Numbered from the stretch's first letter, positions 1-8,141 are shown. The stretch is 8,906 bases of DNA from a virus (IMGVR_UViG_2690316276_000009:1-8906); one strand, 5' to 3'. A program made the numbers and translations. The notes: generated by a model not told the origin, from the sequence alone.

Positions 1-267
1 CCATGCCAGTTTCTTTTAACAAACTCCCCGCAAACCAGACAACAGTCAACCGCCTGAATTGTGAAGTATTTAAAAATTTCTCCCGCTAACTGATACCCGG
101 CTAACAGTCTGGCGTTTTCTTTTTCAGCAACGGGAAAGCAACAACCACCACACCCGCCACCAGCACACCGTCAGCCAGCACTGACATTATCCGGCTGCTG
201 CAATGCCATTCACAAAAACAGTAAGCAATCACTTTTTACCGTAACAGGTGATAATCCAGATATGTAT

Positions 268-621
268 CTACCCCAGATGAGTAATCCGAAGTTCATCCAT
301 ACCACAGGTCCTGGCTATTCTGTTGTACTCCTGAACAAGAGCAAATAATTCTGAATTAGCAACCATGAACTCATCGCAAACCCTCTGTATAGCATCACTA
401 TTCAGAATAATAACGTCTCTTCCCGAAAGACGATCAGGAGTACAGAACAAAACTGTCAAACGGCTGAAGGCCTTTGCTCGTGCTGCATTGACTATATCAA
501 TACGCTGCCTAAGGATGAAACACCCCGACGCCTCATCAATATTCACTCTACCCACACCATATGAATGATAAATATTTAATGCTGAAAAAACCATTAGACC
601 GTATAACAAACACTCAATCAA
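268..621 (-). CDS. hypothetical protein (117 aa from TTG; 108 aa if it starts at the first ATG)
   Basis: Open frame in the supplied ORF track. The 5'-most codon is TTG and I see no convincing Shine-Dalgarno before the first in-frame ATG. The region is AT-rich and lies downstream of the tRNA in the late-operon direction. No family recognised. A plus-strand ORF (365-568) overlaps it and cannot be excluded. Confidence 0.25.
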   Translation of the reverse strand: MIECLLYGLMVFSALNIYHSYGVGRVNIDEASGCFILRQRIDIVNAARAKAFSRLTVLFCTPDRLSGRDVIILNSDAIQRVCDEFMVANSELFALVQEYNRIARTCGMDELRITHLG

Positions 622-731
622 TACTTAACAGAACTTTTATTTTTGACAAACATAAAATATTTTCAACAATATCCTGAGCCAGGTATATTTCAGTATAAGG
701 CTCTGCCGGAAGGAATCTGGAAGAATGAATA

Positions 732-808
732 TGGCGCGCTGTACTGGATTCGAACCAGTGACCGATTGCTTAGAAGGCAATTGCTCTGTCCGGCTGAGCT
801 AACAACGC
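732..808 (-). tRNA. tRNA-Arg (anticodon UCU, reads AGA)
   Basis: Minus-strand sequence GCGTTGTTAGCTCAGCCGGACAGAGCAATTGCCTTCTAAGCAATCGGTCACTGGTTCGAATCCAGTACAGCGCGCCA folds by hand as a 77-nt cloverleaf: 7-bp acceptor stem with one G-U pair, D arm GCTC/GAGC, anticodon stem ATTGC/GCAAT with loop CTTCTAA (anticodon TCT), T arm ACTGG-TTCGAAT-CCAGT, encoded CCA. Lambdoid and Stx phages are known to carry rare-codon tRNA genes (ileZ/argN/argO) downstream of Q. Confidence 0.85.
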
Positions 809-885
809 TGAATACCGATAATGGACCGCCATCGGGGACCCGCCCCCGCACCAACAACCCTGTTATCATGTCGTCTGCTCTTCCN

Positions 886-930: not shown

Positions 931-1023
931 CAGGTCAACAGAATTTTCGGGTAACGACCGGATAAATTCCAGGCAGTCGGCGTTGATTAACTCACAACTG
1001 GATATTTTTACAGCATTAAGCAT
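931..1023 (-). CDS. DNA methyltransferase, N-terminal fragment truncated by the gap
   Basis: The minus-strand ORF starting at the ATG at 1021-1023 encodes MLNAVKISSCELINADCLEFIRSLPENSVDL and then enters the N run. The xxDCLExxxxLPxxSVDL stretch is the typical N-terminus of N6-adenine/N4-cytosine DNA methyltransferases, immediately preceding the DPPY motif, which would lie in the gap. Confidence 0.45.
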
Positions 1024-1554: not shown

Positions 1555-2409
1555 TTATGACGAATTTACCACAGATTCCGGAAAAATCAACCTAGTTACC
1601 TTTTTTAACTGCCGCTCAGCCCATGCTTCTTCAATATCAAACCGGGTCACCAGCGCATCATAGAATTTCTTAACTGTTTTTTCCCATGACGCGCGTGTTA
1701 TCTGGTTTGTCACCTCGCATATAGCATTAAATGCCTCCGTTGATGGTAGTCTTTCATAGCCACGACCACCACAACGCTGGCAGTCTCTGATAACAGGCAT
1801 ACCACGTTTTACCGACTCTTCACGATGAATGGCGACACCACGCCCACGGCAATCCTTACAGGCGGTGGAAACCTCACCCTTTCCGCCACACTCCGGACAG
1901 GCAACTTTTACCACCTCCCTGACTTTTTTCCATTCTTCCCAGTAAGACGGATACACACCTTTCGTACACTTTGCCCATACCGGCGGCTTACCATCCGGAT
2001 ACTGGACCTTGTTTGTAAAAACTACGCTTTCAATAAATTTTTCCCCATAGCAACAAGGGCACTGCTTTTTACTCGCTGCGCTGCGGGCATAATCCTCAAA
2101 AGCGTACGAAGCCATAATGCGCATCACTACCGGTTTTATTTCTGCCGGAAGTTTTCTCAACGCCGCCACACGATCGCACCGACTGAGTGCATAATCTGCC
2201 AGTAATTCTGTTGCCCGCGCCCTGTCATTCATACTGATGCCCATTTTCCCCAGGAACGCAGAAAACCCCATCTCAGCCCGATTCTGTGTCATGCCCTGCG
2301 CGGCCATCACATCAGTGATACTCAGCGCATCTTTTGACGTTGAGGCCGATGCATCGGTCAGGCAAGGGGATTTTGGGGAGTAGTATTTCGGTAAATCTTC
2401 CAGTTTCAT
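1555..2409 (-). CDS. Q: antitermination protein Q (lambda Q family), 284 aa, with expanded Cys-rich zinc-binding region
   Basis: The N-terminus (YSPKSP...TDVMAAQGM...ND) and C-terminus (KTVKKFYDALV) align by eye with lambda Q (YSPKSP...TDVMAAMGM...; VKPLYDALV). The central region carries CPCC plus three CxxCxGxG-type motifs (CPECGGKG, CKDCRGRG, CQRCGGRG). The start ATG overlaps the rusA stop (ATGA). Confidence 0.85.
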   Translation of the reverse strand: MKLEDLPKYYSPKSPCLTDASASTSKDALSITDVMAAQGMTQNRAEMGFSAFLGKMGISMNDRARATELLADYALSRCDRVAALRKLPAEIKPVVMRIMASYAFEDYARSAASKKQCPCCYGEKFIESVVFTNKVQYPDGKPPVWAKCTKGVYPSYWEEWKKVREVVKVACPECGGKGEVSTACKDCRGRGVAIHREESVKRGMPVIRDCQRCGGRGYERLPSTEAFNAICEVTNQITRASWEKTVKKFYDALVTRFDIEEAWAERQLKKVTRLIFPESVVNSS

Positions 2410-2780
2410 TTTTTGACCTGCTCTTCATGCATTATGGGGTAAATCTTCACCCCCAGACGTCCACCAGATACTGGCTGACCACGAACGATATTGATTTCAT
2501 CAAACTGCTCATCGTCCATTAACACTCCCGCATGTGTCAGTGCATCCAGTGGTGCTTTCAGGATATTGTCCAGGTCACGACGGCGCTTATCCGGTGGCTC
2601 TGCAATAATCTTTATCGCCAGTCTTCCGGACAGGCTTAATTTCAGTCGCTGCTGACGGACAATAAGCGCCACATCCCGGCGATAACGCTCACCGGCTTTT
2701 GATACAAAATATGTGTTGTCACGACGTCGCCAGTAAGTATTCACCGTCGGCGGATAAGGTAAAATAAACTCATGGCGCAT
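2406..2780 (-). CDS. rusA: crossover junction endodeoxyribonuclease RusA (Holliday junction resolvase), 124 aa
   Basis: PDKRRRDLDNILKAPLDALTHAGVLMDDEQF matches the conserved RusA catalytic region (RRRDLDN ... D). Sits immediately upstream of Q as in DLP12-type and other lambdoid prophages. Stop overlaps the Q start. Confidence 0.85.
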   Translation of the reverse strand: MRHEFILPYPPTVNTYWRRRDNTYFVSKAGERYRRDVALIVRQQRLKLSLSGRLAIKIIAEPPDKRRRDLDNILKAPLDALTHAGVLMDDEQFDEINIVRGQPVSGGRLGVKIYPIMHEEQVKK

Positions 2781-2881
2781 CAGCGCAGCACCTCCTGCAC
2801 CAGTTTTTCAAACTTTCCGACTCTGGTTTCCAGCTCTGCCACACAGTCCACCAGCTCATCTACTGCTTTCTGTGCGCGATG
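2780..2881 (-). pseudogene. 3' fragment of the small ORF found intact at 3999-4241, cut at the N at 2882
   Basis: 2780-2881 is identical to 3999-4100; the match ends exactly at the N. Confidence 0.6.
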
Positions 2882-2882
2882 N

Positions 2883-3628
2883 AATTTCTTAACTGTTTTT
2901 TCCCATGACGCGCGTGTTATCTGGTTTGTCACCTCGCATATAGCATTAAATGCCTCCGTTGATGGTAGTCTTTCATAGCCACGACCACCACAACGCTGGC
3001 AGTCTCTGATAACAGGCATACCACGTTTTACCGACTCTTCACGATGAATGGCGACACCACGCCCACGGCAATCCTTACAGGCGGTGGAAACCTCACCCTT
3101 TCCGCCACACTCCGGACAGGCAACTTTTACCACCTCCCTGACTTTTTTCCATTCTTCCCAGTAAGACGGATACACACCTTTCGTACACTTTGCCCATACC
3201 GGCGGCTTACCATCCGGATACTGGATCTTGTTTGTAAAAACCTCGCTTTCAATAAATTTTTTTCCGTGACAGCAGGGGCACTGTTTTTTGCTCGCCGCGC
3301 TACGGGCATAATCTTCAAACGCATACGAAGCCATAATACGCATCACTGCCGGTTTTATTTCTGCCGGGAGTTTTCTTAACGCCGCCACGCGATCACACCG
3401 ACTGAGTGCATATTCTGTCAGCAATTCTGTTGCCCGCTCTCTGTCATTCATACTAATGCCCATTTTCCCAAGGAACGCAGAAACCCCCATCTCAGCCCGA
3501 TTCTGTGTCATGCCCTGCGCGGCCATCACATCAGTGATACTCAGCGCATCTTTTGACGTTGAGGCCGATGCATCGGTCAGGCAAGGGGATTTTGGGGAGT
3601 AGTATTTCGGTAAATCTTCCAGTTTCAT
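2883..3628 (-). pseudogene. antitermination protein Q paralogue, 3' end missing and fused in frame across the N at 2882 to the preceding fragment
   Basis: The track ORF 2780-3628 encodes Q residues 1-250 and then ...KTVKKXHRAQKAVDELVDCVAELETRVGKFEKLVQEVLR, which is the C-terminus of the 3999-4256 ORF. The true Q C-terminus (FYDALVTRF...) is absent. Confidence 0.65.
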
Positions 3629-3999
3629 TTTTTGACCTGCTCTTCATGCATTATGGGGTAAATCTTCACCCCCAGACGTCCACCAGATACTGGCTGACCA
3701 CGAACGATATTGATTTCATCAAACTGCTCATCGTCCATTAACACTCCCGCATGTGTCAGTGCATCCAGTGGTGCTTTCAGGATATTGTCCAGGTCACGAC
3801 GGCGCTTATCCGGTGGCTCTGCAATAATCTTTATCGCCAGTCTTCCGGACAGGCTTAATTTCAGTCGCTGCTGACGGACAATAAGCGCCACATCCCGGCG
3901 ATAACGCTCACCGGCTTTTGATACAAAATATGTGTTGTCACGACGTCGCCAGTAAGTATTCACCGTCGGCGGATAAGGTAAAATAAACTCATGGCGCAT
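3625..3999 (-). CDS. rusA: RusA Holliday junction resolvase (second copy, protein identical to 2406-2780)
   Basis: Protein identical to the 2406-2780 copy; same overlap with the downstream Q start. Confidence 0.85.
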   Translation of the reverse strand: MRHEFILPYPPTVNTYWRRRDNTYFVSKAGERYRRDVALIVRQQRLKLSLSGRLAIKIIAEPPDKRRRDLDNILKAPLDALTHAGVLMDDEQFDEINIVRGQPVSGGRLGVKIYPIMHEEQVKK

Positions 4000-4241
4000 C
4001 AGCGCAGCACCTCCTGCACCAGTTTTTCAAACTTTCCGACTCTGGTTTCCAGCTCTGCCACACAGTCCACCAGCTCATCTACTGCTTTCTGTGCGCGATG
4101 CTTCGCCTGCATCAGTTCCCGAAGCGCGGGTACCATATCTTTACGGATAGCGTCTTTTGTTATGCCCGTTTTTTCGAGTTGTTCAGCATGACGCAGCATT
4201 TCCTGCGCGTGTTTACGCAATTGTTCAGGGGTAAAAGTCAT
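3999..4241 (-). CDS. small phage protein, hypothetical (80 aa from the ATG at 4241; track ORF 85 aa from TTG at 4256)
   Basis: First codon of the track ORF is TTG; the first ATG gives MTFTPEQLRKHAQEML.... The N-terminus resembles those of the 55-aa and 114-aa ORFs at 8142-8650. Stop overlaps the rusA start by 1 bp. Confidence 0.5.
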   Translation of the reverse strand: MTFTPEQLRKHAQEMLRHAEQLEKTGITKDAIRKDMVPALRELMQAKHRAQKAVDELVDCVAELETRVGKFEKLVQEVLR

Positions 4242-4467
4242 TGTCTGGTTGTTCAAAAGAAACGCTCCATCTTACTGCTGTCAGTTCGTTTATTACTGTA
4301 TCTGCGCGGATTGCCGGGCTTCATGGGAGTGGAAAGCACCCGTGCACTTTCCTGGTCCACAGGCAGAAAATGTCCGTAGACTGGCCCCCTGAATCTCCAG
4401 ACAACCAGTATCACTTAAATAAGTGATAGTCTTAATACTAGTTTTTAGACTAGTCATTGGAGTACAG

Positions 4468-4833
4468 ATGATTGATGTCTTAGGGCCGGAGAAACGCAGA
4501 CGGCGTACCACACAGGAAAAGATCGCAATTGTTCAGCAGAGCTTTGAACCGGGGATGACGGTCTCCCTCGTTGCCCGGCAACATGGTGTAGCAGCCAGCC
4601 AGTTATTTCTCTGGCGTAAGCAATACCAGGAAGGAAGTCTTACTGCTGTCGCCGCCGGAGAACAGGTTGTTCCTGCCTCTGAACTTGCTGCCGCCATGAA
4701 GCAGATTAAAGAACTCCAGCGCCTGCTCGGCAAGAAAACGATGGAAAATGAACTCCTCAAAGAAGCCGTTGAATATGGACGGGCAAAAAAGTGGATAGCG
4801 CACGCGCCCTTATTGCCCGGGGATGGGGAGTAA
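4468..4833 (+). CDS. insC: IS2 transposase OrfA (InsC), 121 aa
   Basis: [54 protein letters not shown]... is the IS2 InsC sequence. The A6G slippery heptamer AAAAAAG at 4785-4791 is the known -1 frameshift site that produces the InsCD fusion. Confidence 0.85.
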
Positions 4834-5197
4834 GCTTAGTCAGCCGTTGTCTCCGGGTGTCGCGTGCGCAGTTGCACGTCATTCTCAGACGAACCGATGA
4901 CTGGATGGATGGCCGCCGCAGTCGTCACACTGATGATACGGATGTGCTTCTCCGTATACACCATGTTATCGGAGAGCTGCCCACGTATGGTTATCGTCGG
5001 GTATGGGCGCTGCTTCGCAGACAGGCAGAACTTGATGGTATGCCTGCGATCAATGCCAAACGTGTTTACCGGATCATGCGCCAGAATGCGCTGTTGCTTG
5101 AGCGAAAACCTGCTGTACCGCCATCGAAACGGGCACATACAGGCAGAGTGGCCGTGAAAGAAAGCAATCAGCGATGGTGCTCTGACGGGTTCGAGTT
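4791..5197 (+). pseudogene. insD: IS2 transposase OrfB (InsD), N-terminal about 135 codons only
   Basis: [41 protein letters not shown]... matches the InsD N-terminus. The reading frame leaves IS2 sequence at the N at 5198 and continues as the antisense of the Q fragment. Confidence 0.75.
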
Positions 5198-5198
5198 N

Positions 5199-5431
5199 CA
5201 CCGACTGAGTGCATATTCTGTCAGCAATTCTGTTGCCCGCTCTCTGTCATTCATACTAATGCCCATTTTCCCAAGGAACGCAGAAACCCCCATCTCAGCC
5301 CGATTCTGTGTCATGCCCTGCGCGGCCATCACATCAGTGATACTCAGCGCATCTTTCGACGTTGAGGCCGATGCATCAGTCAGGCCGGGGGATTTTGGGG
5401 AGTAGTATTTCGGTAAATCTTCCAGTTTCAT
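5199..5431 (-). pseudogene. antitermination protein Q, N-terminal fragment (about 77 codons), third copy
   Basis: Encodes MKLEDLPKYYSPKSPGLTDASAS...TEYALSR, matching Q copy B except for C16G, then stops being Q at the N at 5198 where IS2 sequence begins. Confidence 0.7.
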
Positions 5432-5808
5432 TTTTTGACCTGCCCTTCAAGCATTATGGGATAAATCTTCACCCCCAGACGTCCACCAGATACTGGCTGA
5501 GCACGAACGATATTGATTTCATCAAACTGCTCATCGTCCATTAGCAACCCCGCATGCGTCAGCGCATCCAGCGGCGCTTTCAGAATATTGTCCAGGTCAC
5601 GGCGGCGCTTATCCGGTGGTTCTGCAATAATTTTTATTGCCAACCTTCCGGACAGGCTTAATTTCAGCCGCTGCTGGCGAACAATAAGCGCCACTGCCCG
5701 GCGATAACGCTCCCCGGCTTTTGATACAAAATATGTGCTGCCACGACGACGCCAGTAAGTGTTCACCGTCGGCGGGTAAGGTAAAACAAATTCTATGCGC
5801 TCGGTCAT
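5428..5808 (-). CDS. rusA: RusA Holliday junction resolvase, divergent paralogue (126 aa)
   Basis: Same RusA core (RRRDLDN...DDEQF) with a different N-terminus (MTERIEFVLPYPP) and several substitutions. Start abuts the stop of the DUF968 gene. Confidence 0.85.
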   Translation of the reverse strand: MTERIEFVLPYPPTVNTYWRRRGSTYFVSKAGERYRRAVALIVRQQRLKLSLSGRLAIKIIAEPPDKRRRDLDNILKAPLDALTHAGLLMDDEQFDEINIVRAQPVSGGRLGVKIYPIMLEGQVKK

Positions 5809-7595: not shown

Positions 7596-7626
7596 AAATA
7601 AAAACAAAAACCCGCCGAAGCGGGTT
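7596..7626 (-). terminator. rho-independent terminator about 70 nt downstream of hok
   Basis: Minus strand: AACCCGC-TTCG-GCGGGTT (UUCG tetraloop) followed by TTTTTGTTTTTATTTT. Confidence 0.6.
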
Positions 7627-7694
7627 AAGTGTGGGTGCATTGAGGATGCCTGACCCATCAGAGGTGGCGAGGGATTTCTCCCCCGCCTGGTCTC

Positions 7695-7850
7695 TTACTC
7701 CTCAGGTTCGTAAGCTGTGAAGACAGCGACCTCCGTCTGGCCGGTTCGAATTCGTACCTCGCAGAGGTCTTTCCTCGTTACCAGTGCCGTCACTATGACG
7801 GTTAAACAGATGACGATCAGGGCGATTAACATCGCCTTTTGCTGCTTCAT
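7695..7850 (-). CDS. hokD: Hok/Gef-family membrane toxin, HokD/RelF-like (51 aa)
   Basis: MKQQKAMLIALIVICLTVIVTALVTRKDLCEVRIRTGQTEVAVFTAYEPEE matches HokD/RelF as I recall it and has the Hok signature (hydrophobic helix, then TRK.LCE.R). AAGGAG lies 9 nt before this ATG. The track ORF extends 19 codons upstream in frame to an ATG at 7907. Confidence 0.85.
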   Translation of the reverse strand: MKQQKAMLIALIVICLTVIVTALVTRKDLCEVRIRTGQTEVAVFTAYEPEE

Positions 7851-8141
7851 AGCCTGCTTCTCCTTGCCTTTCGGCACGTAAGAGGCTAACCTAGATTTGC
7901 CGTTCATAGATTGAGCCTCAGATTAATGTTAAGCGTCTTGCCGGACGCGTAATGTTAACTGGGGCTTTTCTCTATCTGCCTTTTGGTGTTCATGCCTGAG
8001 ACAGATAGCCTCAAGCACCCGCTGCAATTCTACTTAACTCTCCTTTTCCCGCAAACCGTTTTTATCCCCAGCGGCAAATCGAATACACCACCAGCGCCAC
8101 CGCCATCGCAATTCCTACCGTTGTTAATGCTTCAGGCCAGG

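Follow-up and report, generated by a model that had tools for sequence, protein, structure and literature searches.

The first 731 nucleotides of the window, by which we mean the whole 8,906-nt stretch of viral DNA that was analysed (IMGVR_UViG_2690316276_000009:1-8906), are best explained as the variable moron slot of a Qin/Stx-type lambdoid prophage. According to this reading, to which we assign a probability of roughly three in four, the slot holds a functional 92-codon gene (hereafter ORF92), a decayed copy of tciB, and AT-rich non-coding spacers that were left after the deletion of tciA. Positions 1-731 contain no toxin, neither Stx-like nor Hok-like, and nothing there resembles a toxin gene. 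This is ordinary mosaic prophage cargo and not a new kind of element, and it leaves the understanding of phage biology unchanged.

The window covers the late regulatory region of an Escherichia coli lambdoid prophage, encoded on the minus strand. Read from right to left, it carries a hok/sok locus, a DUF968 gene, repeated rusA/Q units with an insertion sequence, the Q antiterminator (1555-2409, minus strand; Pfam Antiterm, E 7e-55) with a terminator-like site downstream of it (1515-1496), and a 65-aa ORF (1174-1371, phrog_331). These are followed by the late-region N6/N4 DNA methylase gene, which appears in the ORF list as a 5' fragment of 31 codons (931-1023, minus strand) with 94% identity to the methylase 5' end of the stx2A-carrying locus L107. 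The methylase fragment is cut off by a run of 46 Ns (885-930) that covers the junction upstream of the next gene, a tRNA-Arg with anticodon UCU (tct in the DNA; 732-808, minus strand; ARAGORN, and Rfam tRNA at 68 bits). About 1.1 kb of the Stx2a phage, comprising the remaining methylase and two tRNA genes, is absent at 885-1023, which may reflect either a real deletion or a gap. This tRNA-Arg gene is the last of the late-region tRNA genes and forms the upstream edge of the cargo slot, with 1-731 lying downstream of it in the direction of transcription.

The first-pass annotation had proposed that 1-731 corresponds to the slot between the tRNA and lysis genes that holds stx in Stx phages, and both synteny and flanks of 94-95% identity bear this out. 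The Stx2a phage Stx2_EH2201 has the order Q, 65-aa ORF, DNA methylase, tRNA-Met, tRNA-Arg, tRNA-Arg, stx2A, stx2B, iraM (opposite strand), nanS-p, and holin. Window positions 724-849 are 95% identical to the tRNA-Arg gene immediately 5' of stx2A (L107), and over positions 931-1515, which comprise the methylase 5' end and the 65-aa ORF, identity to the Stx2a phage is 94%. Similarity to the Stx2 phage ends a few bases past the 3' end of the tRNA, and the breakpoints relative to both tciAB-type and Stx2 loci fall at about 719-724. Since the flanks match the Stx2a phage in direct synteny, 1-731 is the stx-equivalent slot and occupies the position of stx2AB. The backbone common to Stx2-converting phages (Stx2_EH2201, 933W type) thus consists of Q, the 65-aa ORF, the DNA methylase, tRNA-Arg, and a cargo that begins a few bases from the tRNA 3' end; beyond the cargo, iraM on the opposite strand, nanS-p/DUF1737, and holin are also found in relatives of the window. 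In L001, a close relative, the slot runs on into iraM, DUF1737, and holin. The difference lies in the cargo, which is the toxin in the Stx2 phages, whereas that of the window bears no resemblance to Stx or to any other toxin.

The anti-adaptor gene iraM is located on the opposite strand just past the slot in many relatives (L001, 8485-8820; L087, 2504-2839; L107, 3792-4115). It follows stx2B in the Stx2a phage, and it follows the tciB relic in 58 of the 79 window-type loci that had enough downstream flank for comparison.

Slot contents are swapped between related prophages. Inspection of other lambdoid prophages, as the first-pass annotation had advised, revealed stx2AB, TerB plus DUF3927 (tciA-tciB), DUF3927 alone, an AraC-type regulator plus ORF92, and ORF92 plus DUF1883 at this position. 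Two loci in which homology stops at the ORF92 stop codon (L018 and L038) were rejected as an alternative module, as both carry an insertion sequence. The version found in the window is widespread. The 884-nt block from tRNA-Arg to window position 1 occurs at 96-99.9% identity in 80 IMG/VR prophage contigs, phage mEp460_ev081, and numerous E. coli chromosomes. Segment 233-731 is carried by 1183 of 5426 complete E. coli genomes, about a fifth, with CFT073 and ST131 isolates among the carriers, and no RefSeq feature lies over it among the high-identity matches listed.

Positions 1-731 are indeed more AT-rich than their flanks. Their GC content of 41.5% is the lowest among 164 sliding windows of 731 nt (median 49.6%). 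This composition is unevenly distributed: the non-coding parts 547-731 and 233-267 have 31% GC, ORF92 has 44%, and the DUF3927 ORF has 51%. The spacer at 547-731 (minus strand) is part of the ORF92 module, and 18 of its 185 sites vary among 37 distinct cassette alleles, the set on which all polymorphism figures given here are based.

The larger of the two ORFs previously noted here, a 117-aa frame with a TTG first codon (268-621, minus strand), had been considered weakly supported. It turned out to contain a genuine coding gene, on firmer ground than had been thought, but the TTG start did not hold up: the conserved form is 92 aa long and starts at GTG 546 (268-546, minus strand). Diverged versions are found in L003 (76% DNA identity; the orthologue is annotated as hypothetical protein WP_001017777.1) and in L004 (72%). 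In these two lineages and in the window the 92-codon frame is open from the same GTG to the same stop position with no indels in 276 nt, and the orthologues in L003, L004, and L006 are all exactly 92 aa. The dN/dS ratio is about 0.26 in every pair (Nei-Gojobori) with synonymous differences of 0.53-0.58 per site, and third codon positions take 48-51% of all differences (p 0.0008-0.003). Among the cassette alleles ORF92 is the least variable segment, with 3.6% of sites varying versus 9.7% in the adjacent spacer (p 0.009). The open frame without indels, the low dN/dS, and the PHROG match, remote homologues, and confident structural model described below together establish ORF92 as a genuine protein-coding gene under purifying selection.

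Homology to the diverged orthologues reaches only some 12 nt beyond the GTG on its 5' side, and within the cassette the N-terminal extension of 25 codons that distinguishes the 117-aa ORF (547-621, within the spacer) accumulated one synonymous versus four non-synonymous changes; the conserved product is therefore the 92-aa form. Both the 117-aa TTG start and a 108-aa ATG start were rejected in favour of GTG 546, as the extension is not conserved in the diverged orthologues. The 108 positions of the PHROG 2873 profile correspond to an annotation of this gene that begins at the ATG (P0003), and its first 16 positions are not conserved in the diverged orthologues either, which also argues for a protein of 92 aa. 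The Shine-Dalgarno region of GTG 546 is weak and only G-rich in the window; in the L003 orthologue, an AGGAG lies 4 nt upstream of this start codon. The GTG start, the weak ribosome-binding site, and the AT-rich setting are the likely reasons why no RefSeq feature covers the gene in the matches listed.

As a separate observation, the window allele of ORF92 uses AGA/AGG for five of its ten arginine codons; at 5.4% of all codons, this share exceeds that of every other gene checked. The gene lies directly behind the tRNA-Arg(UCU) gene, which reads these rare codons.

The profile search that had been suggested for the larger ORF assigned it to PHROG 2873, a family of unknown function, over residues 1-92 (E 5.6e-58); PHROG 4827, also of unknown function, was a weaker match. 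Searches of Pfam, NCBIfam, and PADLOC yielded no match for ORF92. A RHIM hit (E 0.09) and scattered single-member Pfam matches were regarded as noise, and GapR/UPF0335, the best match in a PDB profile search (E 0.05-0.25), was not significant. Only 20 matches emerged when 1.84 billion representative proteins were searched with a profile. Remote homologues are 91-95 aa long and 32-40% identical (E 3e-15 to 4e-6), and the remote match P0089 (E 7e-4), located in a Mu-like baseplate region, was treated as doubtful. Among 185,579 species-representative genomes ORF92 was found only in E. coli and in one MAG contig (L006), whose protein has the same sequence as the E. coli L003 type. Likewise, a tblastn search of 50,697 phage records with ORF92 and the short hydrophobic protein retrieved only mEp460_ev081, although the low-complexity filter probably hampered the latter query. 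The distribution of the family in these data is almost restricted to prophages of Escherichia and other enterobacteria.

The AlphaFold2 model of ORF92 (pLDDT 84.6) comprises a long helix at residues 3-35 and another at residues 50-81, with a short beta-hairpin connecting them. Foldseek comparisons with PDB and BFVD retrieved only generic helical hairpins (best E 0.26 in PDB and 0.44 among viral models); efflux-pump adaptor hairpins, prefoldin beta, and TraM were dismissed as relatives, being generic folds with E of at least 0.26. Hydrophobic segments are absent from the protein, whose best Kyte-Doolittle window scores 0.94, and its charge is near neutral. It is thus predicted to be a small soluble protein of helix, beta-hairpin, helix architecture. 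Because it appears non-enzymatic and coiled-coil-like, the most likely mode of action would be that of an accessory factor that modulates host or phage by binding another protein, and a role as toxin or enzyme is unlikely. A more specific proposal, which we advance only tentatively and consider improbable, is that this uncharacterised helix-hairpin-helix family, present in about a fifth of complete E. coli genomes, provides a functional accessory factor that acts either as a partner or regulator of TerB-TciB or as an inhibitor of the host or of competing phages at induction.

The smaller ORF is a different case. The 28-aa peptide (101-187, minus strand), described earlier as shaped like a single-pass membrane peptide or small toxin, is part of a 43-aa ORF that begins at GTG 232 (101-232, minus strand) and is obtained from the internal ATG 187. 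Its hydrophobic nature was confirmed: the best 19-residue Kyte-Doolittle window (VLADGVLVAGVVVVAFPLL) scores 2.47, and KKK comes after it, in keeping with a membrane helix. Its interpretation as a stand-alone toxin was not, since the peptide is the 3' half of a degraded DUF3927/TciB gene. The 43-aa ORF matches Pfam PF13064 (DUF3927) at 95.6 bits (cut-off 25; E 1.7e-27) and phrog_1470 ("TciB-like") at E 7.8e-13. Intact TciB/DUF3927 proteins have two hydrophobic segments and are 54 aa long in phage P1 and 54-57 aa in E. coli (for example MTVKMRLAVVALLLFLVVMV..DFSSRIMSVLADGVLVAGVVVVAFPLLKKK..). Their gene lies behind a TerB/tciA gene (141-143 aa), with which it overlaps, and the pair occupies this slot, flanked by the tRNA genes on one side and nanS-p/holin on the other. 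The two-segment architecture (50-57 aa) is incomplete in the window, where the ORF encodes the second segment only and has the N-terminus MIAYCFCEWHC in place of MTVKMRLAVVALLLFLVVMVDF. Instead of an adjoining or overlapping TerB gene there are only the last 18 nt of tciA (243-260, minus strand), identified by aligning the window pairwise with L095, in which the tciA-tciB junction is intact.

Homology to the intact tciA-tciB locus begins at window position 260, seven bases past the ORF92 stop codon. The ancestral tciB start GTG, overlapped by the tciA tail, is now GTT (243-245), and the part of tciB that encodes the first segment aligns to L095 with about 29 nt of gaps, an alignment that could reflect replacement instead of decay. 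From SSRIMSV onward the identity to intact tciB is 94%, and it continues unchanged into the downstream non-coding DNA, which indicates that conservation is not specific to coding sequence. Of the 132 sites of the remnant, 13 vary (9.8%, compared with 9.7% in the spacer; p = 1.0). Among the 37 alleles, GTG 232 was lost in six, one has a stop at codon 8, and one carries L19P in the helix. The changes comprise six synonymous and seven non-synonymous ones, somewhat better than the neutral expectation (p 0.08). We conclude that the 43/28-codon ORF is most probably a non-functional relic of tciB that encodes a single hydrophobic helix. Hence, of the two ORFs, ORF92 is conserved as coding across homologous regions, but the short peptide largely is not.

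Known tciA-tciB systems are those of phage P1 and of E. coli lambdoid prophages such as phage JLK-2012. Over the 3' 200 nt of 1-731, identity to the DNA that encodes the second segment of tciB and to the sequence downstream of it amounts to 94%, and the P1 genes are also located among tRNA genes. The window differs from these systems by the deletion of tciA and by a tciB that lacks its start codon and first hydrophobic segment. A near-complete tciA-tciB is present in 737 of 5426 E. coli genomes, and partial matches occur in 2363 (about 1600 more). The tciB name comes from phage P1, whose tciA resembles TerB; the label "tellurite/colicin resistance or cell-division inhibition" was assigned by homology only, and the tciABC genes are non-essential in P1 (PMC10695390, PMC9603915). 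Literature searches retrieved no functional study of DUF3927, TciB, or the protein accessions.

We propose that the slot, bounded by the final tRNA gene of the late region and by the lysis cassette, acts as a recombination-prone site for cargo, and that the present arrangement would, on the most economical history, have originated in three steps. An ORF92-tciA(TerB)-tciB(DUF3927) array may have been present downstream of the tRNA gene, an order suggested by the sequences of other lineages. A deletion that began just past the ORF92 stop codon would then have taken out all of tciA except its last 18 nt, and tciB would have lost its start codon and first transmembrane segment. ORF92 has remained under selection after the loss of tciA and the decay of tciB.

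Members of the ORF92 family are consistently located in the late slot, upstream of holin, where they are preceded by Q, the methylase, an AraC-type gene, or a tRNA gene. The order ORF92, TerB, DUF3927 was found in three contexts, L088/L089 (with a 38%-identical homologue), L006, and L115, which span 38-63% ORF92 identity. In most L003-type loci the partner of ORF92 is DUF1883, and in L004-type loci it is an AraC-type gene. In L002 and L004, 143-aa genes labelled "TolA" were considered as TerB and rejected, as the TerB profile gave no match to them. A consensus scan identified a strong intrinsic terminator just past the ORF92 stop codon in L003 and L088, and a promoter-like site upstream of the gene in L003 (10 of 12 consensus positions). 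In the window, the same scan found no terminator after ORF92, and upstream only a weak promoter-like site in the spacer (666 to 639; 9 of 12 positions); there is also a weak hairpin inside the gene (432-414). Judging from its position, ORF92 would be transcribed by Q-antiterminated read-through from the late promoter across the tRNA gene, perhaps with some additional weak transcription from a promoter of its own.

Lambdoid morons, according to the concept attributed to Hendrix and co-workers, are reportedly extra genes inserted between conserved neighbours that carry their own signals and have an atypical composition. ORF92 shares the features of position and composition. Close relatives differ in whether they carry it at this one position (absent from vB_EcoS-813R8, the tciAB loci, and the Stx2 phage; present in the window and in L001/L002), and the slot it occupies is compositionally atypical (41.5% GC). 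As to signals, the consensus scan placed a terminator in its orthologues (L003, L088) and, in L003, a promoter-like site as well; the copy in the window has lost the downstream terminator and has only the weak promoter-like site. As far as can be judged from sequence comparison, the family behaves as a self-contained unit, and the layout of its orthologues appears to be that of a classic moron.

Three other explanations were weighed against this reading. That the region is non-coding late-leader DNA in which the 117/92-aa ORF is open by chance, or that the real gene is a 67-aa ORF on the opposite strand (365-568, plus), is very improbable and largely refuted. Such an account would agree with the missing RefSeq feature over 233-731 among the matches listed and with the non-ATG start and weak Shine-Dalgarno region, and in 8-11% of trials per lineage pair random substitution by itself left the frame uninterrupted. 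The antisense frame also yields a similar dN/dS, a mimicry that results from the wobble position it shares with the sense frame. However, chance does not account for a dN/dS of 0.26 at such synonymous divergence with no indels in three lineages, for protein-level homologues down to 32% identity, or for the PHROG match and confident structural model; no Rfam family matches the region, and the antisense ORF was rejected because its frame has two stops in the window and two in L004. On the other side of the cassette, the 43/28-aa DUF3927 ORF could be a functional single-pass small inner-membrane protein, that is, a shortened TciB instead of a pseudogene. We regard this as unlikely, though not negligibly so. 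Its Pfam score of 95.6 bits, its intact hydrophobic helix with KKK, and a 6:7 ratio milder than neutral all speak for it, as does RefSeq, which lists either the 43-aa or the 28-aa form, according to the allele, as a DUF3927 family protein, with contig counts from hundreds to over 1000 for each form. Nevertheless, such a protein would have to work without the first hydrophobic segment, the original start codon, and the TerB partner, and the remnant has the variable-site density of non-coding spacer, alleles with a lost start (6/37), a stop at codon 8, or L19P, and an identity of 94% that does not change when the coding sequence ends. Some residual function is possible, as the frame is open in most alleles and the 6:7 ratio has a p of 0.08, but it is not the favoured interpretation.

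The remaining explanation concerns ORF92 itself, which may belong to a three-gene system with TerB (TciA) and DUF3927 (TciB), for instance a membrane-stress, exclusion, or lysis-timing module, and thus be an orphan in the window. On the one hand, members of its family lie directly upstream of TerB-DUF3927 in L088/L089, L006, and L115, and the ORF92 of the window abuts the last 18 nt of tciA. On the other hand, an intrinsic terminator lies between ORF92 and TerB in L088 and another is located behind ORF92 in L003, the partner is DUF1883 in most L003-type loci and an AraC-type gene in L004-type loci, most intact tciAB loci lack ORF92, and no homologue of it was found beside tciABC of P1. In addition, ORF92 is still constrained in the 1183 genomes from which tciA is gone, and co-location may merely reflect the use of one common cargo slot. 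We therefore consider a system of this kind quite improbable and favour the variable moron slot with a functional ORF92 and a decayed tciB.

The suggestion that 1-731 carries toxin cargo found no support: neither ORF92 nor the DUF3927 ORF matched a toxin family in Pfam, PHROGs, NCBIfam, or PADLOC. In Rfam searches, 1-731 had no match to any RNA family, even at permissive E-values, and contained no antisense-RNA-controlled small-toxin locus, while the true hok/sok of the window (7695-8020) was detected.

The tciB relic is followed by a conserved sequence of about 80-100 nt (1-100, no strand assigned), which is 94% identical to the DNA downstream of tciB in L095. In related prophages this element recurs after successive cargo modules, with four copies in L004 (1835-1950, 2105-2220, 2660-2775, and 4596-4711) and two in L087 (3014-3129 and 3495-3610). 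Its conserved blocks are TTAAAT.CCTCACAATTC, TTGTCTG, TTTGTTAAAAA, and GCATGGTGAATC. RNAalifold gave no conserved RNA structure for the element (-0.41 kcal/mol), and it may be a recombination linker or a promoter.

These results are of relevance because the slot between the late tRNA and lysis genes carries lysogenic-conversion genes that include Shiga toxin, and recognizing its other contents helps in the reading of pathogen genomes. ORF92, a gene under selection for which no RefSeq feature exists among the matches listed, represents a useful correction to annotation. Conversely, many of the 28-43-aa "DUF3927 family protein" entries are probably fragments of a 54-57-aa protein with two segments. 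The recurrence of ORF92 beside TerB-TciB provides a testable lead for two families of unknown function.

Elsewhere in the window, the unit of Q and rusA (1555-5808) is repeated with a period of 1219 nt. The copies at 2177-2476, 3396-3695, and 5199-5498 are 95-98% identical, and 1664-1963 matches 2883-3182 at 100%. One Q/rusA copy is interrupted by an IS3-like orfA/orfB pair (4423-5405, plus strand). Single N bases at 2882 and 5198 lie exactly at the junctions of chimeric ORFs, and these junctions look like assembly joins or masking and not like biology. Finally, an isrK-like match (7605-7686; 25.7 bits, below the family threshold of 50) lies just downstream of hok in a complete hok/sok type I toxin-antitoxin locus (7695-8020), which comprises a sok RNA (112 bits, Rfam E 1.3e-25) and a Hok ORF (7695-7907, Pfam Hok).
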